Positions 2,492-62,261 of a stretch of 64,000 nucleotides of DNA are shown here, piece after piece (positions within the stretch are counted from its first letter, which is position 1; every line of letters begins with the position of its first letter). The stretch comes from Perna viridis (taxonomy: Eukaryota). A program made the translations under genes and the position numbers. The DNA is taken from NCBI GenBank assembly GCA_037379345.1, contig CM074513.1, forward strand, positions 40,234,885 to 40,298,884, in the 5' to 3' direction. Under the pieces are notes generated by a model. It had not been told where the DNA came from, searched no databases, and saw only the letters and a list, made by a program, of their open reading frames with translations.

Positions 2492-4783
2492 TTAGATAAC
2501 ATAATGATACCTGCCACTAGGTTCCACAACTACAATATTAGGAGGATCTTCTAAGGTTTGGTTGTCCGGTGTCTGTAAGGCAGAGTCTACTACGTTACCT
2601 TGGAAACATTCAGCTTTCTTGAAGAAACAACCCCTATTGTCATAATTATCATGGGTAGTCCGTCGTTTAAATCCATCAACAGACCTTTTAATCGGAGGAA
2701 GTAAGGATGTATCAATTTGTAGCTTGAGGATTCTTCTTTGACTGTTATTAACTGACTTTTTCGGTGGTGATGTTGGTTTTGGTGAAAGTTTCTTGATATC
2801 ATTTCCCAACTTGAGGCTTTTCGTCACCATTCTCGTTTCCAATGAATGAATCTGAGTATTTTCTCTTTTCTCAATTGTTTCTTTTTGCTTAGTTATTTCT
2901 TTTCTACGATCATAAGATGGTTTATTGTCGTTTTCTTGCTTTTCAATACATATAGTGTCTTCAGGAATGTGGATTTGCATAGCAAGTGTATCAACTTTAT
3001 CTGATATTGACTTCATTATACTTAGGAATGATTTAAGTGTGGTCGAGTTGCGTCGTTTTCTTTCCTCTATCTTTGCAACGCATTTTTCAAAATCTGTTCA
3101 TTAGAATAAAAATTGAACACCCAATTGTGTTGAGAATCGTCATGCAGGATTGTGTTGACGTGTTTGTGGAGAAGAACATATTTTGTTCAATTATAAATCT
3201 CAATTTATTTTTTTAAATACCCGAAAATAAAATTTCTATTTCATTTCATAAATCGAAAAAATGAAAGCTTTTTAATGCATAAGAAAATAACTAACTGTAA
3301 AGTCAAGTAAAACACGTCTTTATAGGTTATAGAGGTATCATATCTACAAATACCGAATGTGAAGTCTACTCTACCAGACAAGTGATCGACGATCGTTAGT
3401 AAATGTAACGTTCCAGTCTATGAGGTATCCAAATCATAAAAATTCATCTACGATCTTTTCAATAAAAAACAAAAAGATAAACATGCAATTGATTATAAAA
3501 AAACAACATTAACAAACCTTTTATTTTCTCTGTTCCCATAGACAGCATGCTATTTCTGAAATACATATCAAAGTTCAAAGGAAATAGAATAAAATAAAAT
3601 GATTATTAAACACTATAAATAAGACAATTACTACTCTCTTAAAACAAAATGGTTTCAAATTAGAATCATACATTATACTGTCACAAATATTCCCGAGGTT
3701 AAATTTAACCATATTTATATAGATAATATTACTAATCCATAATGTATGGGTACAATACTAACCTAGTTGTATTAGAGGACTCAATTCTGTTTTTTATCTG
3801 TTGATGCTTATCATTTACATCGTCCAGCATCACGCTGATATTTTCAATCTTTAAAAGAAGGCACATTATTCCCCAACTGACGAGTGACCAAAAACGTCAA
3901 ATCATCTGATAACTGATGTATAGTGTCTGCCAATATTTTGACTAAATTTAAATAATTGCACATTAAGATCATTCTTTTCGATGACTTATTCATATTATAC
4001 TATTAAATACATTCTGTGTAAGAATCAGGCAATGGATGGCACATCATAATTTTCAATTCTTTTTTTTTGCCTTAAATATATTCAATACATCTAGAAAACA
4101 ACTGAACAGCTATTTAAATTTATCCCGAAGCATCTGTGACATAGATATGTTTTGACTGATTATATAAGGAAAACGTGCAGGAAAATTTTAGTGAATTTAA
4201 ACTAAATTTGACCTATCAATGTTTTAAAAAGGCAAACTTTAAAAATACTTTGACAGTGATTTCTTGGGGTTTCGAGGTATAAATACTTGGATAATGCAAT
4301 AAAATCTCTGTGTATTTTTTCTTCCTGTGCCACACCTTATACACATTTTGCCTGATTCTTAGACGGAGGAGTACTTAAGTACTATTGTCATCACCATGAT
4401 ATTACTGACCAATAGAATTTTCATTATAGTGTTTTACTATGATTAGCGTCCCCCAATTGCACGTTTAAAACTTATAGATGTCTTCCACCGTACTTTATCT
4501 TGAGCAACGACTTCTTACCCTTCTGGAACACTTAAGTTCGACTAGGGTTCGTTTTTTATTCTTTTTTATTGTACGTTTTGTTTTTCATTTGTTTTAATTT
4601 TGGTGTGTCCGAACTTACATAATTTGGTTTTTTTTTGGTATAGAAAATTGCCGAAAGATTAACTAAAGATTTGATGTCAAAGGTCATATTGAAACCCATG
4701 AAAACGCTGTCTTCTCGTTTGTGATTTTGTTTTTATTTATATATATATTAAACGTTTACCGTTTCTTCGATGACGGAAGTCAT
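2492..4783 (-). CDS. Spliced orphan gene, 249 aa, N-terminal coiled-coil-like region and low-complexity C-terminus; coding exons 4783-4760, 3848-3763, 3555-3518, 3093-2492
   Basis: All introns are GT-AG with compatible phases (0, 2, 1). The joined frame is open: MTSVIEET-IENISVMLDDVNDKHQQIKNRIESSNTTR-NSMLSMGTEKIK-DFEKCVAKIEERKRRNSTT... and continues into the 174-aa ORF. Confidence 0.8.
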
Positions 4784-6720: not shown

Positions 6721-9634
6721 CGATGTATAATTATTCTTTGAAAACTGGGTACAGTGTTGCAATATCTATATGATTTGTATGATTTGTTTTTTATTCAACA
6801 TTAGTAGTACAAATTCAGTTTTGTTAAAGGCTTTGTACACTGGGACAATACATTTCTCATGAAGGGAGCAAATACACTTTGAAGCGTCTTTGCCAATGAA
6901 TACAGACTTAGGTCTATCAGTCCTCCAGTGTTGCAGGTTTAAAATATGACCGTTCTACTGAATACTTAGCTGCTTTTACCCATCAAGACAATGAGTCAAT
7001 TTCTTGTTCTTATATAGGCTCTTGAATAACCATAGACTGCATCCATGATTTTTTAACTATGGTGCCAGTTTATTTGTTACTGTTATCTGAACTTCGAGGG
7101 TTAAGAGGTATGCCTCTTTTTGTTAGTACTGTGATGTTTGTTTATAGTTGAAAATTTAACAGGCAAATTGTGTTATTGTAACTGTAGGAGATTAATAGGA
7201 AATGATTGATTTTTTAAATAAGACAGTATTTTTTTCATTATTTTTTTTCGTATAGAATTTTGCTGATGTTGATCAAAACGATACCTTTATTTTCGAATGT
7301 ATAATAAGTATACGTTGAAATTCGGATATTTTAAATACCAGTTAAAAGAAAGGAACAAAGGAATTATGAAATTTAAGTATGGTTCTGTCTAAAAACCAAG
7401 TGTTAATATCTCAAATGGACAACTTTCATTTAAATTTTTATAATTGAATACAGTTTGTATGAGGCCTTCTCAAGGATTTCAAATAAAACATATTTGGTAT
7501 TTAAAAATTCATAAATCACTTATTATAAGCTTCTGTCTGGCTTTAAGGCAGAGCTACACTTAAGATTTCTATAAAAGGTGTATGAAAATTCATCCACATA
7601 TCACACAGTCTCTGTATTTAGTCTAACTCATCCCCAAGGAATTCATCCAAATAGTTTTGAAGATAATCGTCTGCTGCTCTTAGCATTTGTCGCAGATTGT
7701 GAAGCGCGAGAATGTTAATGTTAGTCGTAATTTTCTGTTCATGATCGATGTTTTTTATTGGAAGAACCGTATAAGGTGTTAGTCGAAGAGCATGCGCCAA
7801 TTTTTCAGCTCTTTCCTTGACTTCTTGACTGTGGAATACTGTGGAAAGATCTCCTTTAACCGATTCAGATATACCGTCGATTTTGTTCATCAAAATAAGC
7901 TGAGGAATGCCTAAATAATACAAAAAATTATAAACAAAGCAATACCTCTTATAATTTTTTTATCCAAGATTAATAAGAAATATAGTATTTTGTTTGAAGC
8001 ACACATTCAGTTTTAATGGATTATAATGTATCATATTCAGCATAGTTTGAAGGCAATTAGACTTCATATATTTTCTAAGAGTTTAATGTATTCATTAGAG
8101 TGGCGTATGCAATTTCTGTCAAGGATACGTCAAGATTTCGTAGACGGACAGACGTAAAAGGTACAAAAATGTTCTTGTTTTACATATTTCTGAAAAAATA
8201 ATAATATTTTACCTTTGAGATTCATCAAATCTTGTATTTTCTTTATTTGTTCATGCACGTGTTCTGTCGTAGGATAGTCAGGATCGTTATTAGCATCAAC
8301 AACAAGAGCTACACAATGAATTCTGTCATGCATCTTAGGGTCCCTTCTGTAGTATGGATTTTCTTTAGTGATATGCATTTTGTCTGTAAACTACAAGTAT
8401 GGTGTCAAAACATCTTATTCAAACGTCGTGTTATGTTGTTGTTTATAATTTTTCCCCAATTTTCCTTTCATAACAACATAAACGCATACCAGGAAATTTT
8501 GCTAAATGTTTTAAAAGAAAATTATCGAACGTTTTAAGTTAAAGTTGAGAGACTTTGGGCTTTCCGAAATTTTTATATAAAAGTATATACATATACATAA
8601 ACAAACAAATGTATAATCATAAATTACTTTATTCTCTCTTCACATAAGTTTTCCGTTATGCATAATAATAATTTCTCATCTCAACGAACTTCGACAACTC
8701 AAAGTTTAATATAGGGGATGACTTTTGACTACTAGAATTCAACCCCATTTATTATGAACTATAATTGTATTCTCCTTTAACCTGAACAAATACATTTTCT
8801 CTAAAACTGTGAATAAATATTCCGAATTTGTTTACAAAATTGCGACCCCTCTGAATATCAAAAAGTCCTTGGCTTTGAACTTAATGTTTTCCAAAGAACT
8901 CGCATGTCATGGTTAATATAATGCATATGCAAAACAATGTGCTTATACTGAAGAAGTTTGCAAATGTATTTATATGCCCAATAGGACAAAGCAACCTGCA
9001 ATGAATGTGTGTCTTCTAATCAGTATATTCCTTTAAAGGAAAAATTAGAATTAAAATAATACAGATCATCTCGAAAAGTTTACATATACAGAGCTGTATC
9101 ATTTACCATGTATTTATTCTTTACATGTCCATCAAGGATGCATTCTATATCATTCAGCTCTCTACGCCTTGAGCATCTTCAAATCCTTTGCAGTCACATA
9201 TTCTAAATTTCAATCTTTTCCCGTTTGAGACTATTGGATAAACATTGAACTACAAAAAGGAATATGATAAAGACTTCACCAAAATTAAGCAAGTAAAAGA
9301 AATCATTTGGTTTTGGTAAAAAGTTATAGACTTGTTACAATTCAGGTGCCTCGAGTAGGTTGTATTTCAAAAAAATATCAAATGAAATGCGTTGCTTTTT
9401 GAAATACGGGCTAATTATTTAAACGAAGGTGGCGCGAATTACAATGACTGAACATGAATGAAGCACTCACAAGATATCATCAAACTTAAATAGAGACTGG
9501 AATTCACAATCAAATAATGCGTTAAGTTTATCGTAAAGTTAAGGTGAAAAACAACATGTGTGAATATGTTTAAAACAACCAATGCCATATCTAGCGTGTG
9601 TCAAAATGGTGTTACAAGAAATAAAGCAGCTCAC

Positions 9635-9847
9635 CGCTTTTGTAAGACTCGTATCAGAACTGCCTGCACGTGCTTGAATCGAGAGTCTTCCACGGAAGAA
9701 GGAATTAATGGTGTTAAAGAAACTTGACTTTCCTGCACCAACAGGACCAATTAACAGTATATTGACATATTGAATAGCATTTTCGGCGACTCCCATTTCT
9801 TTAAGTGGCCAGTATTCGTCGATTTCTTTTTTGATACTCTGAAGCAA
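9635..9847 (-). CDS. IFI44L: IFI44-like P-loop exon
   Basis: Walker A GPVGAGKSS; cag| acceptor and |gtgag donor; 71 codons. Confidence 0.9.
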
Positions 9848-10929
9848 CTGAATAAAACAAATATTTAATAAATTACTTGATTACTAAACAAAAGGTGATA
9901 TGTACATTGCTGAAGATGGATCATGCCTGGTTAAATCAACAACAGTCCTTCATCATAAAGATCTTGGAAATTTGATTTTTCTAGCTACTAGATTTCATTG
10001 ATAATCATTTGCATGATAGTCTAAATAAAATGTAATTTGCGTGATTATGTACAAATATTAATCATATGATAAATCGATTCAATCATTTTTGTTAACAATA
10101 TAATTTTGTAAGTAGAAACATACAAATATCATATCTAAATGATGCGGAGTCATACTTCATTACATTTTGCACATTTAGGTTACATTAGGCAATTGTTACC
10201 TGGATGCTGGAAAATGTCAGATGACGTTCTACAAAAAATATTCTGAAATTTCCAAGAAGACCTGATTTTATTATAAGGCGGGATATATCGCTTTTTTTGG
10301 AAAATTATTCCACAAAGGAGTAAAATAACCGTAGCAAAAGTACAAGGATTTATGAGCAGATCAGAGTGTTACAAATGTCATTATAGAAAAAAATTCATTT
10401 TTTTTATTTCGCTGTTTGATTCTAAAATATTAATGTAGATGATACCTGTAACACTATTTACGAAAAAAAATATATACCGTGACCTTTTTCAGAATTTTAG
10501 AAGTTAATAGAGGTTTTTGCGCCTAAACCTTGTTTGACCACCTTTGAGTAATGACAGATACAACTACTTTGTTAATGCCATGATAAAATGTACAGAATAC
10601 TTATTTTTCTATTTAAGGAATCGTACAGGAGCCAACCACGGCTTTTATACTTCGAGGTTATGGACAAACCGTTCTTCGAATTAGAGTTTTCCGAGTCAAG
10701 TAAAACAAAATATCCTGAGGGTATGGGGTCTATCATCACACATTGATCGTTGATGTTTTTTTCCATGACCTGATCACATTTCCCTTCGAAAGGATCAGAG
10801 ATTAATTGAAGAACGAAAGTAATAATAAAAAAAACATTGTTTTAGTAAGGGTTTCAATACTGCTAAATAAATTGTTACCTCGGCGTTCCAAACAGGAAAA
10901 TCAAGTTCTCTCCAAGGTCTCACCATTTA

Positions 10930-11396
10930 GGTTACAGACCACCAATTCAACCAATGAGCATTCGGAACGTACGCAAAAATAGTCCTACGCAGAAATTACC
11001 CCTGTTCCTCATAGTGCTGTGAAAAAAGTTCTCATCTCATTTAAAAAATTTAAACAGTTTCTGAAAGGAAAAACATTTCTGTACATTTTATATGTGCATT
11101 TTGCTTCTTGTGATGTGAAGCCTAATCTCCATAATGATTTCTAAATATACCCTTATCTTGTGAAAACACTGGGATTTCCCATGCTATTTATAGACACTTC
11201 ACTTCCGGTGACCAGTACTGCACTGCAAGTCTGCTAACCCCACATGCCATTCTGAGGATTGTGAGCTGACATATGTAGAATCATGCTGATATATAGTCAT
11301 CTGCAGGTTAAAGTTAAGGTAAAGTCCAGAGAAGCCATTGAATATTGTGAAATTAGCATAGAAGCCTATGGGAAGTGGAATTAGTGGTTTTTAGCC
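10930..11396 (+). repeat. Long terminal direct repeat 1 (467 bp)
   Basis: Matches 12271-12737. Confidence 0.95.
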
Positions 11397-12270
11397 TTAA
11401 GCAGAGGACATGGCAAAATGATAAGTTTCTTGGAATAGCTTTAAACTACTTGGAGATCTTGTAAACTTTGCTATGAGAGGAATACACTACAAAAATCCTT
11501 CAAAATATGCATTTTTTTAAGTTATTGGTCCAAATTATGGAAAATTGGTCTTTTTGGCTGAATTTTATGTCCTATCTTGTGAAAAGTGTAGAAAATTTAA
11601 TGAAAATATCAAATATTTAACTTTGAGGGCTATATTTACTTAAATATGGTGGTAATCAGCACTTGAAATCAAGTTTTGTGTAAATTTGAGCAAAAATTTG
11701 ATTAGAAATGAGGAAAAACTCACTTTCATTACTGCGGTTAAGGACATATAAGCATTTCCCTATGACAACATGGAAAATGCAGTTTTGAGTACTTTTTTTG
11801 CTTTAGGTGCCCTTTACTTGTCATGTTTTATTGTGAAAACACTGTATTTACAAATTTAAAGCCAAAGATATCACCTTTTGCGAAAATTTAAAGAATTAGG
11901 GTTTTTGACATGTGATCAAGAAAAAGGGGGAGGCATGTCAGACATAAATTTTTAAAAATAGACTAATTTTTCAGAAAATGACTACTTTTAAAGGCTATCT
12001 CTTTATTAATATTGTAAGAAAACAAGTTGTGATTGATTTTTTTTATTTGAAAAGTCAGAAAAAGTTCTTTGCAAATATTAAATGCATTTAAGTATGGTAG
12101 AATATTGTCACTTTTTTGCTCGCGCAACTTGGTTACCCTATATTTAAAAATCAAATATTTAAAAAAGTGCTTGTCACATTTCACTGAAACTTTGCAAATG
12201 CATTCAGTATGTGTATAGGAAGATACTTGTGTAGTTATTTATTTTTTCTAAGACAGAAAGTGACTCTTTA

Positions 12271-12737
12271 GGTTACAGACCACCAATTCAACCAATGAGC
12301 ATTCGGAACGTACGCAAAAATAGTCCTACGCAGAAATTACCCCTGTTCCTCATAGTGCTGTGAAAAAAGTTCTCATCTCATTTAAAAAATTTAAACAGTT
12401 TCTGAAAGGAAAAACATTTCTGTACATTTTATATGTGCATTTTGCTTCTTGTGATGTGAAGCCTAATCTCCATAATGATTTCTAAATATACCCTTATCTT
12501 GTGAAAACACTGGGATTTCCCATGCTATTTATAGACACTTCACTTCCGGTGACCAGTACTGCACTGCAAGTCTGCTAACCCCACATGCCATTCTGAGGAT
12601 TGTGAGCTGACATATGTAGAATCATGCTGATATATAGTCATCTGCAGGTTAAAGTTAAGGTAAAGTCCAGAGAAGCCATTGAATATTGTGAAATTAGCAT
12701 AGAAGCCTATGGGAAGTGGAATTAGTGGTTTTTAGCC
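12271..12737 (+). repeat. Long terminal direct repeat 2 (467 bp)
   Basis: Matches 10930-11396. Confidence 0.95.
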
Positions 12738-13009
12738 TTAAGGTTTCTTCTGTTACATCTGTTAAATTAATCAAAGGAAAGTATTTGTCATAAATGATTT
12801 TATGCATGATATCGTTATTGCATTTAAGTACAAAGCCATATCAAATTCAAATACTCCCAAATATTAGTTGTGCAGAAACCCCACCAAACAATCGATGTGT
12901 TTTTTCAATCTAAACACACTATATTGTTATGTAACTATGGTTCTTTCTGACCACAGATGTGTATTTTTTTTTGTAGGGGGGGGGGGGCACTCATTCATTT
13001 CTCAATTAA

Positions 13010-13221
13010 GGAGGTAGACTTAGGGTAAGGGACAAAATTCATAAAATTAAGGTTATGTTTGTATCATATTCAATTTCACCAAAGCCTTCCAAGCTTTCAT
13101 TTGAAACAGAATGAAATTAATCCAAGTTACTTTGGTGCTTACATGAGATTGAAGTAAAATGCTTAATATAAACGTTCCAATTATTTGTAAGAGTTGAGTC
13201 CCTTACCTTAGGTCTGCCTCC
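13010..13221. mobile_element. TTAA-flanked MITE, 212 bp (Kolobok-like termini)
   Basis: 24-bp TIR GGAGGTAGACTTAGGGTAAGGGAC / GTCCCTTACCTTAGGTCTGCCTCC (21/24 match); TTAA at 13006-13009 and 13222-13225. Confidence 0.85.
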
Positions 13222-14305
13222 TTAAATCAACCAAATTAATAACGAAAACTCTTGCAAAATGCATATTTCATGTACAATCTATGTACATGTACTTATACTT
13301 CTACACTGCAACAACTGAATGTAAAGTTAAGACTAGTTAGGTGGTCTGTGACTGTCTCCGAATAAGAAATAAATGTGAATTTGAATTTTTTTATCTAAAT
13401 GAATGAATCATCTCCTCCAGTCTAATCTTTATAATGATCAGTAAAGAATGGTCGTCATCATATTGAACAGCGATATCAGGCTCAATCGTTAACTACATTA
13501 TTCAGCTCAATCGAAAACATATTTCAAACACAACGTGAATTACAAAATGGAAATCTTCTTTAAATAGAATTGACGTGGCTAAATATAATACATATGCATA
13601 AACATTGGTTAGTGCATTCTCCATGAATAGAGATAAAATGAAGGACGAGACAATGCTTCGGATGATACAAAATGACGATCTTTGTACATTAAGGGCAAGT
13701 ACAAACAATATGCGCAGCCAAATACATCGTTTAATTTGCGATCTGATACATTATTTTAAAATGTTAAAGTTTCTGATACAGTTAATATTATTTAAGATTT
13801 TTTGTACAGCTTTATGTTTTAAAGTTCAATGAATGAAATTGATATATTGACTTTTAAATGCCTTTTACTGCCTAGATATTTCGATGTATTACTTAAATGA
13901 TGCCATGATAAAAACTATCTAAAGGTTCCAACAAATAAACTTTTTATCGACATTGTTACTTTGCTTTTCTATTTGGATATACAGCTTCTTGATATTTTTG
14001 TCTTAAAAACTTTCAGTTCATCCTTAATATTTATTACTTTGTACTTTTCAAAAAAGTGCTCTTCGACTTGTAACATGTAGTGCATATTTTTTCGTTATAT
14101 TCATTGCTTACAAAATATATTTAGTTACATCACAGGAAACAAAACCATTCCATTGCAACGTTATAATGTTTCGTTTTTTATGGTTGATAGTAACCTACTA
14201 TTAAAATATCTATCAACCTATAAAGATCTTGATAAACCTCTCTTATGAGGCGGGGAGATGTAGAGGTCTCGTCGGTGGACTTGTGTGATTATAATTCATT
14301 TATAC

Positions 14306-14831
14306 CTTCTACTGCGTACACCTGCACATCCAAAGCCTCAAACGTCCCATTTGTCAAAGCTGTTGCGGTTTCTTGGCTCCACTGATAACTTTCAGGAGTC
14401 ATTGCGCTATTAAGAGGTAAGCCAGTCGTCCCCTTTGTGATAGTATCTTTGAATACCATGAGGTCTGGTCCATTTCCAAAAACGGGTCCACATGTAGTGT
14501 TCATCATAAGTGCATTTTCAGGAATTCTAACAGAAAATTTACCCGCGTTTTGCATCGTTCCTCTTTCAAGAACAAACAAGAATGCGTCGGCGTCATAGAC
14601 AGATTCACCACTACCAGGCATCCAGCTAACTCGTGCATATCCACCATAAACATTGCCGTTACTGTGGAACACAAGTGTCAACGTCGGGCCCTTGTTATTA
14701 CAATTTTGGTGAAAAGTTGCAGCAGAGCATTCCTGTTCGGAGGCGGAAAACAAACGCGTATATCTCTTTTTTCTTCCCCCAATCCACGCTGAAATCAATA
14801 CTTGTTCACGGAATGTTAATTCGTTCGCCAT
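14306..14831 (-). CDS. IFI44L: IFI44-like first coding exon (TLDc domain)
   Basis: Open frame with an AG acceptor directly before the ATG at 14831 and a GT donor at 14305; TLDc motifs present. Confidence 0.9.
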
Positions 14832-15238: not shown

Positions 15239-15484
15239 TGTGGAATTAGGTAAAACTACAAAGAAAGTGCATATGATTGTGTCAGTGCCGTTTTTTTAAT
15301 TGTTTGCTCCCGTACCCAGTTATACGTGGAATTTAAAAAAGTGATATTTGGTTTTAAAATATAACCAAAATTAGAAAAATAAAAGAAGAAGTAACAGATA
15401 AGAGATGGCTCCCACCATGTCCCCACATTCATAGATGACAATTCCATGTTTTCCTATATGAAACCCTATATTGATTCTGACCAT

Positions 15485-15965
15485 TTTTTTATATTAGAAA
15501 ATATTTTTTTAATATTAGAAATTCATTTTGTAATATTAAAATTCATTTTCTCATATTACAATTTCCTTGTTTAGTAATATTATAAAATATCACACATTTT
15601 GTGATATTACAAATTGAATTTGTATATATAAGAAAATGAATTTGTAATATTAAAAAAATCACTTTGCAATATTGCAAAACCAGTCACATTTTTTAATATT
15701 AAAAATGATTTTCTAATATTAAAAAAAAACGCAATTTGAGTACAAGAAATCCATTTTCTAGTATTAGAAAATCAATTTCTAATATTAAAAAAATCAATTT
15801 GGAATATTAGAAATTCAATTGATTTTTTAATATAAAAAATGATTTTTTTAATATTAAAAATGGGTTTTGTAACATTAGAAATAGAATTTATAATATTAAA
15901 AAATGAATTTGTAATATTAAAAAATCATTTTTAATATTAGAAAACACTCATCATTGTAATATATT
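15485..15965. repeat. Degenerate AT-rich tandem array, unit ~21-22 bp built on TAATATTA(G/A)AA
   Basis: About 20 recurrences of the AATATTA core at roughly regular spacing. Confidence 0.8.
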
Positions 15966-25340: not shown

Positions 25341-25345
25341 TAAAT

Positions 25346-25848
25346 TAGATTGATTGATTGATTGTTGGGGTTGAACGTCCAAGCAGCAATATTTCAGCTA
25401 TATTCAGACGATGAACATGAAATGGATGATAAAATGAACATGAAATGATGATAAAATGAAAAAGGGATGGGACACAAAGATAATGGGGTCGACAAATTTT
25501 GATTGCCACTGGAAATAGGGAGAGGTGGGTAGGGTCGGGCAATTTAGCCTCCTGTGGTGGAGCCATATGGTTCCTACTCCGGGAGAATACCACAGTAGGT
25601 TTCTTTAACATGCGAGGAACGTGGCATCTTTCCCAACACGGTGCACCACTATGGTTTGCGGTCAGGTTTTCCGCATTATAGCCTGACAACCCCAGCATGT
25701 AACACGCCAGGGGTACCCCATTCCAGTTGCTCTGTGGGCAGAGCGCCCTAGCCCTTGGCTAGGGTTCTGAGCGCTATTTAGTCGCCTTTCACGACAAGCT
25801 TAGCGCTGCTGCAGGCCTATTCTTTTAACACCCGGACCTACACGGGGC
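25346..25848 (-). mobile_element. ~500-bp SINE-like retroelement, copy 1, (CAAT)n tail, ~20-bp internal deletion
   Basis: Highly similar to the copies at 32298, 56735 and 60892; no clear TSD. Confidence 0.9.
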
Positions 25849-25879
25849 GAAAAGATCAGTTTTCAGTTTTTTATGGCGC

Positions 25880-26045: not shown

Positions 26046-28580
26046 GTAATTCTTGAAATATTTTGTTATTCCTGATAATGTCATGTCAAAAATGTCCTTG
26101 GGTTTGCACCATTGATATTACTACGCATCTTATTTACTTACATCTCAAACTGCATGCTTTTAGAAAGTTGAACGTTTCTCTGTTCTGTAATTTGGTATTC
26201 CATAAATGCTGACCAATAATAAAGGCAGGCTGTATGCTTTTGTTTATGTTTGATGGAGATAACTTTTCGCAAGGGGTATTACATGGCTTTTCATATAATT
26301 AGGATTTATATAAATAATATGGTACCAAAGTTATATCTGCACAGAGATGTATCCGGATCGAAAATTTGGATTAGCACACTTGAAGCAGAACTTTTCCCAG
26401 CTTCTATTGAAATTAAAATTTTATGTTATATTGTGAAAAAACTTGTTCTTGTGATCATGATTAACTGTAAATCCATATGCGTTAGTGTGTCAGATACTAA
26501 TATTGTGTAAACACTTGCCACCAAAGTTCGATGTGCTGCGCCCCACGAAGCTCTGTATTGATAATATTCAAACTATTCTCTATTTAAATTATTATTTTTA
26601 ACTGATCAAGAACCAGTTTTGCAATTTTGGAGTATTCAGGACTATAGAGTCTGACTTGAGCCTGTACGACCGTTTACCTTTCACCAATATCAAATAAACC
26701 GATCTCGAAATTGATCCAGTTTATAACGACGGCATGTTCTCCATCAGGACGCGATTCATCATTTCACAAGAGCCGGTTATGATTTTCTTTAGTTATCACT
26801 GCATTGTAGTGCAGCAGACTGTTAAGGATTTTAAAATTTCAATGGGCTTAGATGATATACAGTAATACCAATTGTAAGATTAATTACTTAGTCTTTGAAT
26901 TTTCAGCTTATTTGTATAAATTAGAAGAGAGCTGAAAAGTCAGTCGAACCCAATACACTTTCACTGGAAATTTAATTGAATTCAAGTATTGTAGGCATCG
27001 GGAAAAATATAAAGATTTAGTGTAGAATTTTAAAAATGCACAAAAGAATCAACAGATTGTACAACAAGATTAAAGTCATCAATACGGAAGATAAATGGGG
27101 AATTAATTAAACATGAACCTGACTGAATGAGCATACATATATTCATTTTATAATTTATTTCAACCTCTATAGTGCATTTTTAATACCTGTGAAATAATGA
27201 CACAACCCAAAATACTACAATGCATATCTTCATATTCTATACTGAATAAAAAAAAATTATACAACGTTTTCGAATCTATCTGCAACGGAAGCTTTGGAAA
27301 ATGATCTTGAAGTTTCAGTATACTAAAATTGTACTAATATATAAAACAGAATTGGGTAACATGTCTAGTTTATGTACTGTCGTTAGTACACAGATACATA
27401 TATAGTATCGAAAGTACTTTTGGGGAAAAAAAATTCTGAAATAAGAAATAAGGATATAGTGACTTAGACGTTTTTCACACGGCTGGATTAAAAAAAATAT
27501 ATTTTGTGATAAATTGATAATACAAATACTATGAATTTTGAAGCATATGCATACATATTTATGTTTCACTAAAATCGGAAGCACGAGTACAAAACCCATG
27601 TGTAAAACCCAGACACTTCTGGACAAAGAAATGTATGTCAGGAATGGCTTTTGCAAAAGTGTTTTGAATGTATGATTTTAGTTGTTTTATGTTCTTTGTT
27701 GTGTATGTCTTTTGATTTGCGCTATAACTTTGGTTCCCTTGATTACTTTTTAATTCTTATTATTTTTTTTAAATTTATGGTGCTTTGTTGATCTAGAATT
27801 TACCGTGGATTATGGATATTACCTTATTCCATTCATTACCTCTTTGCTTTTATTTTACAACGATCTTTATTAAAAATTCATTATTGTACAGCAGAAAAAT
27901 GTGTACAATTATCATTAAATGTATATGCATGAATAATTTTAACATATCGATCACGTCATAAAATAAGCTATTTTCGATTATATGCATGCTTTTCTGTTAT
28001 AACAGCTGTCCGGAACCTGGAAAGGTTGTCCTAAAAAACGATTCCGGTAATACAATTTTTGGAAAAAAAGTGGTTAATATACGTCAAAATTTGCAACTTT
28101 AAGCTAATCTTTTAAAGCTATCCTTGTAGATCGATTGATAACGATGTGTTTTTTTATTTCTCATTCAGTACAGAATATTAAGATATTCATTCTTACATAT
28201 TTTGGTGTGTCATTATTTTTCATTTATTGAAAATGCACGGAAATGCAACCATATTCAGAAGCAGGACATTTTTGGTGAGTGATAAAATACTCGAAACTTT
28301 TGTCGGAAATAAGTTCTTTAGTGCATTTTTCTCATCGATGCGCGATATCAGTTAAACCACCCGTTAAAGTATATCGTTGGCCTTCAAAGAATGCATTATA
28401 GCAGAAAACTATACCGTGTTTCACTTAGATAAGTATGCTTTTGAAAGAAAAATGTGGCAATTTTTTTCATTCCAGTAACAAATGATATAACTGTATACTC
28501 TCTAGGCCAATTAAAGTCGAAAACTAAAGCATTTATTGATACCTGTCCGCGGCACTATTGAATTGAATATTTTGTAGTCT

Positions 28581-31301
28581 ATGGTTGAAAGTGCAAAGTG
28601 CAAACTGAAGGATTCGACCATTATGATTGAGAACATAGAAAAAGAAGTACATACAATAAAGAAGGAAAAAGAACATTTTCGAGAGATGATACTTAGTAGG
28701 GAAGGCAATATCCAAAACCCTAATTTGAATTCTAAAGGATTTCATCTTCAAAACAGAAGTTCTTTATCTACTGCTTTAATAACAGATACTGTAGAAAGCG
28801 ACGGAACAATAAGGAGTGCCATACTTACCAGTTATGAAATATCAAAAGAAATACAAGTAAAAGAAACACAACATAAGGATTTAGAAATGAACATAGATCA
28901 ATTAAAAGACAAAAGTAAATTAAGTCTTGGGATGATTGAAGAACAATCGGCAGAAACAGACCGACTTCGTCTAGATTTGTCCAATTTACGGTGTGAAAAC
29001 AAAAAATTGCAAGAAAAATTGCAAGAAAAATTGCAAGAAAAACAGTTAGAATTGGAAACGATTGTCCAAAATGAAAAGACCCGCTATCAGGAACTCCTTT
29101 CAAAATATAAAAACGCTGAGGCCAAAACCGAAGATATGAAAATCAGATTGAATAAGTATGAAACTGACTTAGCGTTGAAGGAAACCCAGTATGAGTACTT
29201 GGAAAGTACGATTCCTATTACATAAATTTGTATCTGTCTGTCCAACCATTACAAGATATTTTTTCTTTATTCTCGGTTACACTCTTGTAAGGTTTTAATG
29301 CTACTAACCAGAGTGCTCCGAATGAGTTAAGTCTACATTGTTAAAAGTATGATTAATTATGAGATGAAACACAATAAAAAACGTGTAAAAAGCATCCATA
29401 TCGTAATGCAATCAAAAGAAAACAAAAAATCTAAAATACACAAATGAAAAAAGGACGTTATTTAAACATTATTCAGAATGGATACATACTTGTGTAACAT
29501 TTAATCACTCACTTCTGAGGTGACTGATGACAGACTATGGAAAACATAATTTTCTAAGTGGATATCATATTGATCAAAAAACGTTTATGCTTTAGCAGGC
29601 TTAATATTGTTAAAAAGACCAAAGCCTACATAAAATACATGATACTTATATACCATTCATTTTATAACTGATATCGATTTTCTTATACAGACTCTGTAAA
29701 TGCAGAATTAAATGCACTGAGAACCGAAAAGGAAAAGTCAAAACAAAAAGTTCAAAGAAGTAAGTAACACCATTATTAAGTATGGTAAATTTGTTTGGAA
29801 AACTGAAATAGTTGAAAATCTCATCCATTAGCAATAATAGTTCGACTATGAAGACTTAAAAAAGGCAAGAATGATATGCGTTAATGGACAAAACAATAAT
29901 AAAACAACAATTTTGTTTTATTTATTTTGTGCAAGATAATTTTTGCCATATTATGAATTATACAGGCGAGAACAACTAAAACAGCCAAAATGCACGTCAA
30001 TTAAAATAGCCAGTTAATAGTCTTTCTGATAGAAACAGTTTTCCAAATGTAACTATTTCAACCGTGTTAAAGATACCAAAAAGCAAAAATCCTTGATTAA
30101 CGAATTTATTGTGGACTTGACTTGATAATGGATTAGTGTTTGATAATTTTGTTGTTACCCATATTTACGCTTTCGGTGTAGGAAGTCTTGGGTAACAGTA
30201 AATCAAATTATATTTTTTAAATAAAGTTATTAGTTTAAAGACAAGCTTTACGTTCATTACAGAGATTGCCTTTCGTTGTGTCTTAAAAAACCCACAATCC
30301 GACCAGGCCATTTCCGGCATAGTATCTTTACTGCAAGAGAAGTTATCAAACATTGATTTAGTAATCATACCAGAGTCGTCTCGAAGCAAAGATATTCCCT
30401 TAATTGTTATCTTCTATCACCTGTCAAGAGTCACAGACGATGCTAAAGGTGCTCTAAGTGGACTAGATGGTATAGATTTTATATTTAGTTTTCTAGACAA
30501 AAGTCGTCAACGTTACAACGTTTGAACATAGAGGACTTTTATTTGTTCTCGAACTAGTATTTATTTATGTACTAGTGAAAGAGTAATCAAGGGAACCAAG
30601 GTTATAGCAGTAATCAAAAGAATATAATACAGGGACAAAGACCAGACATGGAAAACAGATATACACAACAAAGAATATAAAGAAAGTAAAAAAAAATACA
30701 TACAAAATAACAAATGCCAATGGGCAACTCGGACTCCACTAAAAACTGGGATCATGGACCAGGTGCACCGGTAGGGTAAGCGTCCTCTGCTTTTCTAGAA
30801 ACACCCGCCGAGTTGCTCATAAAAACTCAAGAAAAGAATGTTAGCAGCTAATTGTTGATATAAATCAATATAGTAATGTCCTCGCTATGTGGATAGAAAA
30901 TAACTGCGCGTTTTGATAACCAAATCTAAATATAAATAATATTTGTGAGCCCTTTTTCTTTCTACAAGAACAAAGTTAGGCTTATGTGTGTCTTTTTGTA
31001 AACCAATACATGTGAGCGATATATATATGATGCATCAACTCTCACAATTAACTAATATAGTAAGTAAAATGTAGTCGAAATTATTTTTTCAGCTTCTCCG
31101 GACATAGCTCTTGTAGCTTTACACCCAAAGAGGGAATTACAATCCAGCCATGAAGCGAAAAAAATGCTTGCTGCCCCGGAATTTAAAAGACTTGGAGTTA
31201 TAGTAGACATCAGTTTTCTTTCTGCGAATGGAATAATACAAAATGAATTAACTTCAACGGCTGTGGATCAATTAATTCAATTTATAAACAATTTCGAATA
31301 G
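28581..31301 (+). CDS. Spliced uncharacterised gene: long coiled coil plus C-terminal alpha/beta domain; exons ~28578-29205, 29691-29759, 30263-30469, 31093-31301; 5' end uncertain
   Basis: Three phase-1 GT-AG introns join in frame: ...YEYLE-NSVNAELNALRTEKEKSKQKVQR-KIAFRCVL...PLIVIFYHLSRVTDDAKGALSGLD-ASPDIALVALHPK...IVDISF...QFINNFE*. Confidence 0.75.
30577..30830 (-). mobile_element. Penelope-like 3'-end fragment (intronic)
   Basis: Family tail and stem-loop present. Confidence 0.75.
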
Positions 31302-32297: not shown

Positions 32298-32805
32298 GCC
32301 CCGTGCAGGCCCGGGTGTTAAAAGAATAGGCCTGCAGCAGCGCTAAGCTTGTCGTATAAGGTGACTAAATAGTGCTCAGAAACCTAGCCGGGGGCTAGGC
32401 GCTCTGCCTACAGAGCAACTGGGATGGGTGCCCCAGGTGGTGGAAAGGGGTATCCCTGGCGTGTTGCATGCTGGGGTTGTCAGGCTATAATACGGAAAAC
32501 CTGACCGCAAACCATAGTGGTGCACCGTGTTGGGAAAGATGCCACATTCTTCGCACGTGAAAGAACCCTGCTGTGGTATTCGATAGGAGTAGGAACCTTT
32601 GCGCTCCGCCACAGGAGGCTTAATCGCCCGACCTTACCCATCCCCCCTTTTTCCAGTGGCAATCAAAATTTGTCGACCCTATTATCCTTGTGATCCATCC
32701 CTTTTTTTCATTTCATGTTCATTTTATCATCCATTTCATGTTCATTGTCTGAATATAGCTGAAATATTGCTGCTCGGACGTTAAACCCCAACAAACAAAC
32801 AAACA
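32298..32805 (+). mobile_element. SINE-like retroelement copy 2, full length, 14-bp TSD
   Basis: Starts GCCCCGTGCAGG and ends GGACGTTAAACCCCAA(CAAA)n; TSD TCCAATTAAAT(C/A)TG at 32284-32297 and 32806-32819. Confidence 0.92.
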
Positions 32806-33169
32806 TCCAATTAAATATGGGAAAATACTAATGAGATCTACATCGTTTAGGAGGAGTGAGAGAAAGAAAGAAGGTAGATTTTTACCATACCTGACCCCCA
32901 TTCCACATTGAAAATAATTACGTGCATTATGATCTGGTACAAGTTTATATGATTCATGAATATTGGATTTGATAATCACTATAAATAATTTCTATACATT
33001 ATTCGATTTTGACTAATACTATATCCAATATAATTTCGCCATGAACCATATCTTTCTAAAGATTTATTGGGCACCTTTTCGAAATCAAAGAATGCATAGT
33101 ACAATTTTCTTATTCCATGGTTGAAGAATTACAAAAAATATAATAAATCAGTAGTGGAATATACCAATA

Positions 33170-33326
33170 NNNNNNNNNNNNNNNNNNNNNNNNNNNNNNN
33201 NNNNNNNNNNNNNNNNNNNNNNNNNNNNNNNNNNNNNNNNNNNNNNNNNNNNNNNNNNNNNNNNNNNNNNNNNNNNNNNNNNNNNNNNNNNNNNNNNNNN
33301 NNNNNNNNNNNNNNNNNNNNNNNNNN
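33170..33326. other. Assembly gap (157 N)
   Basis: Run of n. Confidence 0.99.
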
Positions 33327-39441: not shown

Positions 39442-42400
39442 AAAATTATTATATTTTATGATTTTATTATGATGAAATTGCAGGCATGGAAATGTAAAAT
39501 TGCATGTAATTTATGTGATAAATAGCTCTTTAAAAACTGCATTACTTTTATTCATTATTTCGCAGACAGAAACTTTAGAAGACAACTACTTAAAAAATCA
39601 GTATCTTACTGGGTTCCTTTCAACATTATCAGAAAAGTACACTCCCTTATTGAAGAAGAAAGGTAGCAAATCTGAAGGTAGGGAATAATGTAAAATTGTG
39701 AACCAATTTATATAAGTATAAACAAAAGTATTGCGAGTAAACTTAATATAATCCTTTCCAGAATAATCAAGACTTCAAGGACAGGACATAGCAGAACAAG
39801 ATGACAAAAACAACAATCACAATAATAGGAAAACCAGTAAATCCTATATTTTTTTCTTATTTGTCAATGGATTTATACATAAATGTCTCAAGTTCTTGAA
39901 AAAAATTAAATTTTTTTGCTGAATGCGTAAAAATATTTTAGACTTGCAAGCAAATTGACAAGGCGAAGTTTTTTCTCCCATTGCTAATATGACATAACAA
40001 CTGTCAAGTAAACTGTCCTAAAATCTAATCGTATACTTCATGTAAAAAGTTCATTATTACATTTTAAAAACTGTTGGCTTAATTTTACAAAACAAATCTC
40101 TCTGATTATTGACAAGGCTATGAATCTAGGATGGTTTTTTTATATATGAAAAAGACACATGAATAAAGAAAGGCCTCTTGTGCTTTGCTTAATATGATGC
40201 AGTCGTTAACTCACTTTGGATTATATGTTGTGTACATGGTACTTTTTCCTTCTATCTACTGATTAGCATGCCAATTTGAGTCATATGGTAAAAAGATTAA
40301 CATATCATTAAAAATGCACAAACATTAGAAAATGTTTAAAAACTACGCAGAAACCAAATAATCCCAGAGGAGCATCGTATTTCATAAAATAATCGCTATC
40401 TTTGCGTCTATACATCTCTAATGAACTATATGCTATAGCGGTTAATTTTACCTTGATTCTAAACCATGACAATTATGTATTGCAGGTTACTATATACGAC
40501 ATGGATGGCATGTCTGATGGATGCATGGAGGACTTATCAGTTCAAGCTATTATAAAAGGATGGTCTCTGAAAGATATAAAAGGTAAAATACACCGAATGT
40601 TCTGTCATTAGAATGTTACCGAAGAGCATATGTCCCCTCACAAAATTATACTTTATGCCACGGAGGATCAAACCCTCAGGAACAGTCAAGAGACGAAAGA
40701 ATTTGACATAATAAATAATCTTTTAGCAAAATTTATCAGGTGGTAATTTAAATCCAGAATCCACTACAACACAGGTAAACCTTCTTACCTCGCTTTCCTC
40801 TCCTCAAGAGCATCCATACAACGACTCTTAACTTGCCTTCCATATCATGTTATGTATGTATGATTGGCACCAGTTGTAACCAGAGAGCATGGTATACCTC
40901 CCAGATTATATACTATACGTAACCAACAGATCGAATTTCAAACGTCTCTGTGACAAATTTGATAAACTACATCGGTTTACTATTCAAATGTACTACCCAT
41001 ACTTGAAGTAGCTGTTCTACCACACGAACATGCTGATCGTATTAACTTCAAATGAGTTCTTTGGGTTTCTTCAATATTTGAGCCTCTGAATAATAATATT
41101 GCCTTCAGAGCTATGCTGCAAAAGTTCTTGATAAAATCATATCTCTTCCCAATCCTTTCTATTTCAAAAATATACCACCAATATTTAAAAATAAGTCTTT
41201 AAGAGTCAAATCATTCTATAAATATCATTTTTTGTTTGTACTTTTAGCCGTTTTTTCATTGCGCTTATTGTTTCTATTTTTTGTTGAATTTCTTTCCTGT
41301 AGACAATCTAAAGTTGCAACCTTTGATACACTATCAGGTAGTAGGCCAAGGGTGTCATCGGCAGTTCAACCTCGGATATCAAATGTAGAGTGTACCAGAG
41401 GAAAGACAGTCACCTTTAATATAACACATGATATGAATTGTAAGTCATTTTTATGAACATAATACAAATCTCAAAGAATGCGAACTATCTGTTTCTACAC
41501 AAGAATTTACGAAAAGATAAAAAAAAATAATCTCAATATTGTTCATGCATGTTTCATATCGCGAAAAATGGTAATATTTTTCCTAATAGTAGACAACAAG
41601 CCTTAATAGAAAAGCTTACAGACAAATAATACCTTTATGCCTTTAAAGTTTAACAAATATACTAGGGAAACACTTAAGACGAAACTTGTAAAAGAAATTG
41701 AATATAAAAGTATTCTAAGGCGAAATAAGTAAAACAAGACACACACACACACAAACTCGCGCGCGGTTCAAAATGATATAATGATCAGAAAAAGTAATTA
41801 TTTATTCCTTCAAGGTAAACTTGAAATGGAAAGATACAGACTGAAATTTAATCCGGGTTCGTCGCCTTTGTATTTCTTCTTAGCTTACCAACACATTCAA
41901 GAAAATGGCGGTCCTGACAAAGACACGGTAAGTAATTGTTGAATGCTTAGATAATTTCCCTGTTAACCAATCATTTTCCATTATTGCTATTTCTACCTCT
42001 GCTTTATCAAATACAAATGTACAGAAACGTCATGATAAAATTAGCAGTCATAAATTGATTAAACTTAGTAGTCTTCACCAGCAAGGGCATAGAGAATTAT
42101 AATAGAACTACATACAGATGTTATATATATGTTGTGTTCAAGTTGCAACATGTACAAAATTATTGTACATGTTGCAATTTGTATGACACAAAAATACAAG
42201 TTGCAATCTGTAAAATTATTTCTGTACAAGTTGTAATTGTACAACCTTAACCATAAAATTGTTTGCACACTGTATAAACCTTTCTTCTCGACATTTTAGT
42301 ATCAAAATATGTAAAAAAAAGAATGGAAAATTGTAAGTAATTTTTATACATTTTTAGTATTGATTTGTTAATCATTTGAGCAGTTACCGTATTCTTACAA

Positions 42401-44739
42401 TTTTTCAAAATTATCAGTTTAAGTGTTTAGAATAAATTTGGCAGTACAACTTTTAAATAAAAATAAGAAACCTGAAATGGAAGGGTTTGTACTATTTCCT
42501 ACCAATTTCATGATAAAGGATATTCAAGTTGCAATATTTACAGAAATATTTGTACATGTTGCAACTTGTACACAACAAACATATTTTATTTTTTTCCTAA
42601 AGATACACATGCATATGCCGATCGTTAAATTCAAATACTGTAAATACTCTCAAACAATGGAAAGAGAAAGAACCAATGTAAAGAAAACAAAACAAATGTC
42701 TTTGATTGTATATTACAATTTAATATATAAATGTCTGTAAAATCGTAGAAGAGGCTGTTACAATATTTTCTGAATGTTCTAGTCCTAACAGTTACATCTT
42801 GCAATGATCTGAAACAAACTAAAGCTAAAAGATTTAATAAAATTCTTTAACAAATATTATGTCTGATATTGAATTAGGATCTGAAGCTATTACTATTGGG
42901 GGCAATAATTGCAAAAAGCGTCAAGATAAACTTGAGAAAGTACACATAGTGAGGTTGTTCAGACAGGTAAGCTTTCCAGAAATGATCACAGTATTTTTGT
43001 GATCAGAAATTAAGTAAGTTATTATGGGACTTGAAACATACTAAGACAGCTGAATCGTTTGGACACGATTTAAAATGAATATTTCTAGTGTAAAAACATA
43101 TGAACTATATCGCGGTATTATTTTAAATACTTTCAGTGCTGTCTTCATTTCTGTACATTTAGAATTATTTATAAAAAGTTACTCGTAAATTAATTGAACT
43201 TAAAAGTATCAAAGTATTGATTTGTGAACATTATTTTTTATCTTATTTTGAGTCTTATAACTTTTGCAATTGAACCTGTGTGGGTATAGTGCTTGAGATA
43301 TCCGTATTTGTCTAGACGCTTCAATGTGAGAAAAATTGTGATCCAAAAGACTGCAGATGTATTCACGCTATTCGTCAAGTAAATTTTTTTCTGTTATAAA
43401 TATAGTATTGCAAATTAAAACGAAGATAATAATTGAAAATTTGTTCTAATCAGAGGAGAAAAAAAAGAGCCAGTATGGTAAAAAAGCATAACTTTTAGTA
43501 AAAATAAATGTTTTTATGGCAAGTGATGTGTTGGAAAATTCATCACATTTTCAATTTATATTCAAGATTTTTAATTAAAATGTTTTATTGTAATGCAAGT
43601 TTTTTTTTATTTTTAAGGAATCGTTTTTGTTTTTTTGTTTTATTATGCAATCTTTTTTGTTCATGTTTCATTATGTTTATTTATTAATACCATGGACTGT
43701 AGAAGTAGGTCCGGTGTAACGCTTATTTCCATTGGCTTTTAGTTAATAGTGGCAGTATCCTGATAAAATTGAGTGTTCACATAAACTCCGAACAGCTTTT
43801 GACGATTGACGTTTGAAATTTACTCTAGACGCTAAAAAACTCACAACAACATTAAAATAAGGAATAGCTGTATGTAAAATATTAGTAAGATACTGATGAT
43901 AAACTGGACGACTTGCTTCGTCGACTATCTTTAGCATTTATTCCTTTTCATGGTGGTAATGCTGTCCTTATATGGAAATTACAACTGCGTTTTATGAATG
44001 AATCAATTAACTTGTTTGGGAGTCAGATCCAAACAAAGAGAACCCAGACTCTGATTTGATCAGAACCCAAATCAATCCGCAAATGTACTTATTAGTTCGT
44101 CTCATACATCGAAGTTACCTATATACAAATGTACATTACTCGTGTAAAATAACAATACGTAAAAATTAAACAAAATCTACATTAACTTCATGGACTTTAA
44201 CTTTTAATACGAGTAATTATCGCGGAGAGTGCTGACAAGTTTTATAAATCTCTCAATTCCGGTCTTCGATCTTAATTGACAAAAAATGATACTCTGATAA
44301 TATATCATCGAAGTTGTGCGACGTTTCATATTTAGATATTTATGTAAACTTGTAAGTATGCACTTGTAATAACACACGAAAAATTCTCCCAAAGGCAAGC
44401 AACAGGGTTCGCATTGTACATCGTTAATTACCGTATAACTTATCATACCGAAAATTTGGGCCGTTGCTAGGCTAAATTGCACTTATAAAGCTTGGAATAA
44501 GTTTTCCTGGAACGCGCGCAAATACTACTTGATTTCACTGTATAAAGCATGTGTTAATACACAGGCGGTAAGATTAACGGGTGAAGAGCCATTCATTAAT
44601 GGAACATATAGACTTTTATTTGTGAGTCCGTTAGAATGAACAGCCAAGTGAATCACTGACTTTAATTACAAATGACATTCAAATGTTAAAAGGCACCAGA
44701 CCTCAGTCTGCAGCTAAGCGCAGCCCAGATCAAGGCAGT

Positions 44740-46385: not shown

Positions 46386-46479
46386 TCAAGAAAGATGACA
46401 CAAAAACTGTCCCAAAAAATTTACATACATATAAGAAAAGGCCCAAACAGGTACCAATATAGTTCTAACAAGGAACTAC

Positions 46480-55410: not shown

Positions 55411-56734
55411 ATATGCAAAAGATATAATACATTTGTACAGTTACATGATTTTTTTTCAATAACAGCAATAATGACGGCAGGGATATTAAAGAATATGGCA
55501 AGAACGGTCCATAATGCTAAAGACAGTAAACTTTACAGCGATCTACTGTCTCGCTCAAGGTAGGTTTTTCAATAAATCAAAATTGTACGTTCTGCGTCAA
55601 TCGAATGGGAAGCTTTACTCCAACCTCGGGGTTTAATCAAACTCTATAAACGAACATATTAAAAACTATTTTACTTTTGCGGCAATTCTTTTAATTGTTA
55701 AGAAAATCTGAAATTTAGTTGCAAAAACGTGTAGATGTTTGTACCTTGAAAGTTCATTTAAGATATTGTTTGTTGTATGTTTTAATCACACAACACACAG
55801 TTACACACTATAACACATAGTACATAAAGAAGTATTTAGATTATGTATTACTCAGTATAAGGCGGAGGATATTTCAACATAAAAAAACACTGAAAACTTT
55901 AAACTTGTTGGGTATTTTATTTTAAAGGAGAAAATATTTAGCTTTTATACTTGATAAATTGTGTGTAGAAAACGACGCAAAAATCCGAACAGTGGCTATT
56001 CGATCAAATCGTTTTGATCAGAATGATGATACAGGGTGATATTTAAGAAGGAGCTTCAAACAATCCAATTCTATAATAGTTCTAAATATGCTAATACAGC
56101 TAAAGAGAATAATGTCCTTAATAATAATCAACCATTGTACATATGAATGAATCTACGTAACTGGGAAATTCAATTCCAAGAAATGTACTGAGACACCCAA
56201 TAGATCAGAAAATAAATACTGATTCGTGTTGATTTTCATCGAAACTAAATTTCTTATTTCAAATTGCAAGTTGTAGAGATTTAGTAACACACATTAATTG
56301 TGAATCTTATTTGCATACCGATCTAGCCGATTTAGAGCTGTTTTGTGGAAGGTTTTACTTATCTCTCGGATCGACAACTGCTCCAAATATTTGGCCGGTT
56401 CTCTATAAATATATTTAGTACATAATTTGCTTTGAAGTGTAATTTTAGCCTGTTCAATCATTATGCTAGATTTTTTCTCGAGAAAGAAACATTCCCTGTT
56501 TAAATGTATTTTCTTAATGTTTATTTAAATATACATTCCTTCTTCTGAAAACATGTTATTGAATTTGTGATTTCACAGAATATTTGAAAACCGAGCCATT
56601 GATATGTTGAACCTTCTTTAAGGGGAACGTGAGCAAGATTGTATGAGTTTCATCAATACAGAAAATGTAACATGGAATGTGATGGTGTCACCAATCGAGT
56701 ATGCCTATGATAATGATATGAAAGACATTATAGT

Positions 56735-62058: not shown

Positions 62059-62261
62059 ATTAAAAGAACTGATGAAGTTTAGCTGGATTCTCCTTGTATT
62101 CATCATGTGCTTTGGAGTGTTGTACTATACAAACATGTATCCAGAACATACAGACATGTGGCCAGGTGGTGGGTATAAAGTTGAACACTTGCGTTTATGG
62201 AAAATCATTTCCTTGCCTTATTGGCAAATCTTTGGCGAGTTATCATTGAATCAGCTGACAG
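62059..62261 (+). pseudogene. TRPM-like S5/pore-helix exon
   Basis: LKELMKFSWILLVFIMCFGVLYYTNMYP...LPYWQIFGELSL, ending at a GTAAGT donor. Confidence 0.85.

Follow-up and report, generated by a model that had tools for sequence, protein, structure and literature searches.

In the parts of PMC9587614 on which we draw here and below, KolobokP transposons are defined by the arrangement LTDR-INT-LTDR, in which two direct repeats (LTDRs) of ~450 or ~660 bp enclose an interior (INT), and by short terminal inverted repeats (TIRs), RR...YY ends and target site duplications (TSDs) of 3-5 bp. Each LTDR carries one short set of TIRs, which may be perfect or imperfect, the short LTDR class runs from ~430 to 483 bp (Table S1 of that paper), and non-autonomous families are counted within the lineage. 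One member, KolobokP-1_BaPl from the mussel Bathymodiolus platifrons, is autonomous and 4169 bp long, with LTDRs of 470 bp, a TSD of 4 bp and TIRs of 20 bp (PMC9587614, Table S1 and Data S1). The transposition pathway is left undefined in PMC9587614, where a circular intermediate is only implied, and a 2026 review (PMC13565253) notes, in the passage concerned, that the KolobokP nuclease model awaits experimental confirmation. Here we describe an element of this kind that lies within a coding exon, from which its empty target site can be read.

An 1808-bp element with two identical repeats

BLAST comparison of the 64-kb window (the whole stretch of Perna viridis DNA that was analysed) against itself joined the two repeats in a single direct match of 476 bp, 100% identical, between 10926-11401 and 12267-12742. 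Within it the repeat cores (10930-11396 and 12271-12737) have 0 differences in 467 positions, and the identity continues beyond the core for 4 bp on the left (TTTA) and 5 bp on the right (TTAAG). An earlier, sequence-only reading had described two identical 467-bp repeats, each with imperfect TIRs of ~19 bp and without TG...CA ends, around an 874-bp interior lacking coding capacity, and this description is borne out throughout: both cores have GG...CC ends, which pair as inverted repeats at 15/19 and 17/22 positions, the longest ATG-initiated ORF within the element is 37 aa, and a Pfam scan of its stop-to-stop frames (21 taken from 41) gave 0/21 above cut-off. The span of 10926..12741 given in that reading encloses a real repeat block, but the element proper is 10930-12737 and lies on the minus strand, with the following parts.

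10930-12737, minus strand: whole non-autonomous KolobokP element, LTDR-INT-LTDR, 1808 bp, oriented by its collinearity, judged by eye, with KolobokP-1_BaPl
12271-12737, minus strand: 5' LTDR, 467 bp, GG...CC, with TIRs (17/22) at 12716-12737 and 12271-12292
11397-12270, minus strand: INT, 874 bp, non-coding, starting TAAA and ending TTAA in the sense of the element
10930-11396, minus strand: 3' LTDR, identical to the 5' LTDR, with TIRs at 11375-11396 and 10930-10951

A 15/19 inverted match occurs by chance at 355 of 19,098,450 position pairs spaced 400-700 bp apart in the same window (1.9e-5), and 27 of the 155,137 GG...CC pairs found there at 100-3000 bp reach 15/20. The TIRs are thus telling because they fall exactly at the repeat ends, and not on their own. 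The interior, with its terminal 4-mers included, has a GC content of 28.8%, and the 64-kb window holds no further copy of either repeat or interior. Three sub-threshold Pfam matches from the 21-frame scan (VraX, DUF565 and EHN) were rejected, as was a 14-bp word common to the LTDR (11158-11171) and the INT (11831-11844), which is not significant (E 0.30-0.56). CpG depletion was also set aside as a sign of a foreign INT (observed/expected 0.23 in the INT, 0.30 in the LTDR and 0.68 in the window), values as low as those of INT and LTDR being reached by 6% and 13% of stretches of the same size, which makes them suggestive only.

A non-coding interior between identical terminal direct repeats would also be seen in a non-autonomous LTR retrotransposon (TRIM or LARD), the repeats of which are made by reverse transcription. 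Against this, the ends are GG...CC with TIRs and not TG...CA, no TGG-starting primer site follows the first repeat and no purine tract abuts the second in either orientation, an Rfam scan at gathering threshold and ARAGORN gave 0 matches and no tRNA in the whole window, and the element is homologous to KolobokP (see below), so that we regard a retrotransposon origin as having a negligible probability.

The element splits exon 2 of an IFI44-like gene

The ORF at 14292-14831 on the minus strand encodes a TLDc domain (Pfam PF07534, E 3.7e-14) and has eight relatives of 469-556 aa in the database, six of them named (34-58% identity), of which five are from Mytilus (one being interferon-induced protein 44-like) and one is from Pinctada. 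TBLASTN with these six named proteins placed exons at ~14831-14300, 9850-9623, 9249-9092, 8390-8211 and 7911-7621 and left ~20 residues without placement. In a three-frame scan the later part of the missing residues was found directly beyond the 3' end of the element, this being the top position for 3/3 peptides (scores of 62 against 23 for the next, 39 against 24 and 58 against 22). For the 5' half of the exon, the AG acceptor preceding 12758 was the best of the 186 AG sites in 10930-14300 when scored with four homologues (72, with 59 for the next and 27 for the third). The gene, read on the minus strand, is as follows.

14306-14831, minus strand: exon 1, TLDc domain (Pfam PF07534)
12738-12758, minus strand: exon 2, 5' half, preceded by an AG acceptor
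10879-10925, minus strand: exon 2, 3' half, followed by a GT donor
9635-9847, minus strand: exon 3, P-loop GTPase motif, open
9107-9249, minus strand: exon 4, 143 nt where the homologues need 141, with a 2-bp excess in the AG run at 9158-9163
8213-8390, minus strand: exon 5, open
7618-7910, minus strand: exon 6 including the stop codon, open

The reading frame is open through exons 1, 3, 5 and 6, and their AG acceptors and GT donors lie at the expected positions. The KolobokP element sits inside coding exon 2 of this IFI44-like (TLDc plus GTPase) gene, in the same sense as the gene. As the two halves of exon 2 abut the outer ends of the element, its interior is foreign to the site and is not host DNA, and as exon 2 is 68 nt long, skipping it would shift the reading frame, which means that the insertion disrupts the gene. 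This IFI44-like copy is a pseudogene with two lesions, although the 2-bp frameshift in exon 4 could be either a second lesion or a sequence error. Neither the insertion into a coding exon, nor the orientation of the element, nor the mismatch between its outer 4-mers described below had been noticed in the sequence-only reading.

The same exon bears on whether a Kolobok MITE of 467 bp might have inserted twice independently, duplicating 3 bp (TTA) each time, with 874 bp of host intron between the two copies. On the plus strand a TTA does stand, formally, on either side of both repeats, and a canonical Kolobok-type MITE lies ~265-270 bp away, but exon 2 resumes only beyond the full 1808 bp, so the interior does not belong to the host; a duplication of 3 bp would leave the exon with a frameshift and a stop; and the ends of the INT match a published KolobokP INT. 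The joining of exon 2 across the block refutes two MITE insertions here, and we give them practically no weight.

Relationship to described KolobokP families

The element agrees with the KolobokP definition in its layout, in the length of its LTDRs (467 bp), in having TIRs on each LTDR and in its RR...YY (GG...CC) ends. It is accompanied by a net 4-bp duplication, within the 3-5-bp range, the two copies of which match at 3/4 bases only, and it is homologous to KolobokP at the LTDRs and at the INT ends, as judged from blocks aligned by eye and two unique text matches. The ORF length and Pfam result given above set it apart from autonomous members.

For comparison with the KolobokP-1_BaPl LTDR the element was read on the minus strand and matches were counted by eye, ungapped, which gave blocks of 13/20 (5' end), 27/35 (74-108), 9/9 (168-176), 11/12 (203-214) and 41/56 (3' end). 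The start of the INT matches that of KolobokP-1_BaPl-I at 13/16 positions by eye and its last 5 nt are identical (5/5), while LTDR positions ~215-410 and most of the INT have no obvious match by eye to this consensus. In the consensus file of PMC9587614 (1,056,590 characters) an 11-mer from the 3' end of the repeat occurs once, in KolobokP-1_BaPl, and the first 7-mer of the INT, at the start of a line, likewise occurs once, again in KolobokP-1_BaPl. Other short words searched for in this file, ~9-10 in all, were less informative, ~6-7 of them having no match and the rest falling in other families: of a first set of five, four had no match and one occurred in six places (the two inspected being unrelated families); of a second set of three, one had no match, one lay in a Corbicula LTDR and one was in seven places; and both motifs of a third set, from the INT, were absent. 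As far as these words reach, the exact family appears to be absent from the consensus file. The whole of Table S1 of PMC9587614 has no family of 1808 bp with a 467-bp LTDR, and no non-autonomous KolobokP of ~1.7-1.9 kb from Mytilidae. Going by the best protein matches and the nearest KolobokP family, the host is probably a mytilid.

The matching blocks have diverged, and elsewhere in the LTDR and INT no obvious match is seen, so that this is a separate family and not a deletion derivative of the KolobokP-1_BaPl consensus. The element is therefore very probably a non-autonomous KolobokP of a family not listed in PMC9587614, closest to KolobokP-1_BaPl, which was mobilised into exon 2 of the IFI44-like gene. 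A non-autonomous KolobokP is what the sequence-only reading had proposed from the layout, and the proposal is now backed by sequence homology to KolobokP-1_BaPl as well. Its further expectation, that copies elsewhere with junctions lacking TTAA would speak against this identity, does not hold, as PMC9587614 states that KolobokP does not strongly prefer any target, and the TSDs in the junction lists of that paper are of many kinds.

Target site and 3' junction

The two outer junctions of the element are as follows.

12738-12741, minus strand: TTAA, the target 4-mer of the 5' junction, with which the 5' half of exon 2 ends
10926-10929, minus strand: TAAA, an extra 4-mer at the 3' junction that is the same as the four bases with which the INT starts, in place of the second TTAA to be expected

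The flanks had been given as TTTA and TTAA in the sequence-only reading, and the 4-mers are as it described them, but it overlooked that the outer two differ from each other (TTTA versus TTAA on the plus strand). When duplication lengths of 0-7 were tried, the reading frame was kept only by 1, 4 and 7, and a length of 4 gave the best score against 6/6 named homologues and restored the 10 residues before a conserved PW that 6/6 of them possess. The empty site written as TAAA gives an in-frame stop, and it was therefore TTAA, provided that the exon had an open frame when the element inserted. At its TTAA target the insertion thus left a net duplication of 4 bp, and a duplication of 3 bp (TTA) was rejected for the frameshift and stop already mentioned. 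The TAAA of the 3' flank equals not only the first four bases of the element's own INT but also those of KolobokP-1_BaPl-I. At the bound on LTDR divergence given below, the exact change from TTAA to TAAA by point mutation has a probability of ~0.001 and any change in the TSD one of ~0.026, which makes simple point mutation an unlikely source of the mismatch.

As suggested by what is described for the family (PMC9587614), a DDD/E transposase supplied in trans by an autonomous relative elsewhere in the genome would have bound the outermost TIRs and moved the whole 1808-bp unit, making a 4-bp staggered cut in the target. For the TAAA at the 3' junction the reading that we prefer, tentatively and at somewhat less than an even chance, is that it was carried over from the flank of the donor site. 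By analogy with asymmetric piggyBac TSDs, the non-transferred strand of the 3' end may have brought in four bases of the donor, TAAA, which would have paired, with one mismatch, with the TTAA overhang of the target before ligation, and the mismatch would then have been fixed in favour of the donor, leaving TAAA at the 3' junction.

Published junctions of another family allow some comparison. We tallied by eye the 162 rows for KolobokP-1_MeMe in Fig. S3 of PMC9587614, which are author-curated, cover part of one family and come without empty sites. An exact duplication of 4-6 bp is present in 137 rows; a one-base mismatch in which the 3' flank equals the start of the INT in 5; the terminal 4-5 bases of the INT between the repeat and a recognisable duplication in 3; another one-base mismatch in 7 (two of which are probably one repeated locus); no duplication in 5; and a partial or ambiguous one in 5. 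Among the one-base-mismatch junctions in these rows 5/12 are INT-like, all on the 3' side (binomial 0.002 against 2/24), and the other 7/12 are not INT-like; polishing of assemblies could give a signal similar to this excess. It is conceivable, if rather doubtful, that KolobokP transposition routinely brings along ~4 bases of the donor flank at one end, mostly at the LTDR's 3' end, and that these can be ligated into the new site instead of, or besides, the TSD. In this genome the evidence for carry-over comes from one locus.

The same element could also owe its TAAA, and the identity of its LTDRs, to gene conversion or break repair between the LTDRs after insertion, with a tract that ran four bases past the end of the repeat. 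The identity does run through exactly the junction 4-mers on both sides, PMC9587614 proposes nuclease-induced repair between LTDRs, and enough time has passed for the host gene to acquire a second lesion. Such a tract, if random, would however have to end within ~2 of 471 homologous bases, and two of the five INT-like KolobokP-1_MeMe junctions in Fig. S3 belong, by eye, to solo LTDRs that now lack a partner in cis, though they are perhaps derived from monomers. We consider conversion unlikely; if it did occur, this copy could be older than its 100% identity suggests.

Errors of assembly or polishing might have shaped the details, either because reads from LTDR-INT junctions elsewhere overrode the TTAA and homogenised the repeats or because a solo LTDR or a multimer was drawn as a monomer. 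A gap of 157 Ns at 33170-33326 and an exact 178-bp tandem duplicate at 1742-2101 (period 182) both suggest joins in a scaffolded assembly, and both outer flanks of the element equal its inner flanks. The insertion itself is nevertheless real, since it has the two parts of the exon on its flanks and requires at least one LTDR; the element contains no gap; and polishing would be expected to act on the two sides alike, whereas in Fig. S3 of PMC9587614 the five INT-like cases are, by eye, all on the 3' side. Assembly effects could thus alter the number of units and the 4-mer, but not the fact of insertion, and as the source of the odd junction they seem distinctly unlikely.

A stepwise origin, in which a solo LTDR inserted first and a circle of LTDR and INT later recombined into it, or in which a multimer collapsed to a monomer and left the first bases of an INT behind, would yield identical or near-identical repeats, and PMC9587614 documents solo LTDRs and multimers and proposes such routes. 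The same paper says that TSDs are unaltered on these routes, so that they would leave the TAAA unexplained by themselves, and the window has no direct trace of an earlier state, which makes this origin improbable in our view.

Age of the insertion

With 0/467 differences, the LTDR divergence is below 0.64% (95% bound). The element had been called young in the sequence-only reading, which fits this bound, but the inference is conditional, as conversion or an assembly consensus would give equal identity. By our own reasoning the identity of LTDRs is not an insertion clock, unlike that of retroviral LTRs, because a cut-and-paste element inherits the differences of its donor and conversion erases them; Table S1 of PMC9587614 includes some families in which the two LTDRs are of unequal length. 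Subject to these conditions a recent insertion is likely.

Other features of the window

A 212-bp element with GG...CC ends, a 17/20 TIR and an exact TTAA duplication on both sides lies at 13010-13221, in intron 1 of the IFI44-like gene; this is the canonical Kolobok-type MITE mentioned above. Long inverted arms at 42123-42584 (63 bp at 84%) and 27172-28238 (~150 bp at 75%) probably mark older MITEs.

Four copies of a repeat of ~510 bp, 85-96% identical, occur at 25343-25853, 32298-32812 (minus strand), 56731-57256 and 60893-61399; they share one sharp end and have a short tetranucleotide tail at the other, giving them a SINE-like look, and we presume that they are possibly of the bivalve Meta-domain type. 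A further repeat is present in eight copies of 120-300 bp, 73-93% identical, near 6014, 25045, 30577, 34239 (minus strand), 39254, 46116, 55198 and 62544, with one shared end and the other variably truncated, as would be expected of the end of a non-LTR or Penelope-like element. A degenerate AT-rich minisatellite (period ~21/69) lies at 15481-15945.

Open frames of 104-215 aa at 28578-29225, 30202-30525, 46435-46749 and 61997-62329 on the plus strand and 2492-3097 on the minus strand gave no Pfam match above cut-off. By eye, one of the five resembles a coiled-coil exon and another an exon of a membrane protein, a third may be an exon that stops at a splice donor, a fourth has a CCHC knuckle-like motif and the last is of low complexity.

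Implications and comparison with known systems

This type of element has been known since 2022 (PMC9587614), and what is new here is a family of the described lineage. The locus offers a concrete case in which an IFI44-like paralogue has had a coding exon split by a KolobokP, and it shows one way in which such copies are lost in bivalves. If the carry-over reading is right, it is also a rare case in which a coding exon fixes the empty site and exposes the carried bases. Junctions with an empty site readable from an exon frame provide a cheap genome-wide test of whether mismatched flanks correspond to the end of the INT or to the donor flank. Were carry-over routine, it would constitute sequence evidence for an overhang or a circle-spacer intermediate in the superfamily, and would mirror the one-sided loss of flank bases at excision sites, where, according to PMC9587614, 1-5 bases next to one side of the LTDR disappear with it. 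The same paper gives a 40:6 excess of 5' LTDR loss in one family. The parts of PMC9587614 used here contain no discussion of asymmetric TSDs, and none of the papers matched on this subject deals with it, going by titles and the openings of abstracts.

The nearest parallel for the junction is the asymmetric TSD of piggyBac (PMC8717057, in a passage citing Li et al. 2013), in which, as here, one junction keeps the target 4-mer and the other has a 4-mer brought by the element. There the asymmetry is attributed to the repair of mismatches once a 4-nt overhang has been ligated, and excised piggyBac ends are reported to carry such an overhang (PMC7351741, in the part drawn on). The piggyBac transposase, however, belongs to another superfamily: PMC9587614 groups Kolobok transposases with hAT, P and MuDR and not with piggyBac, so the analogy may not hold for carry-over, and for KolobokP a circle with a spacer has been proposed instead.

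In overall form the element resembles the non-autonomous KolobokP families of ~1.7-1.9 kb, such as KolobokP-N5_CGi (1738 bp), -N1_ParEch (1820 bp), -2N1_BF (1819 bp) and -5N1_OwFu (1797 bp), which share its layout, size and lack of coding capacity and none of which is given in Table S1 of PMC9587614 as 1808 bp with a 467-bp LTDR. The LTDRs of KolobokP-8DR01 and -8N1b_CorFlu from Corbicula fluminea are, by eye, very similar to it over the terminal 20-30 nt at both ends, but the inside of the repeat has no evident match, and the likeness is limited to the TIR and a subterminal motif. KolobokP-1_BaPl differs in its greater length (4169 against 1808 bp) and in the transposase and His-Me nuclease that the present element lacks, and resembles it in the length class of its LTDRs, the GG...CC ends, five collinear LTDR blocks (65-100% by eye), the ends of the INT and a 4-bp duplication.
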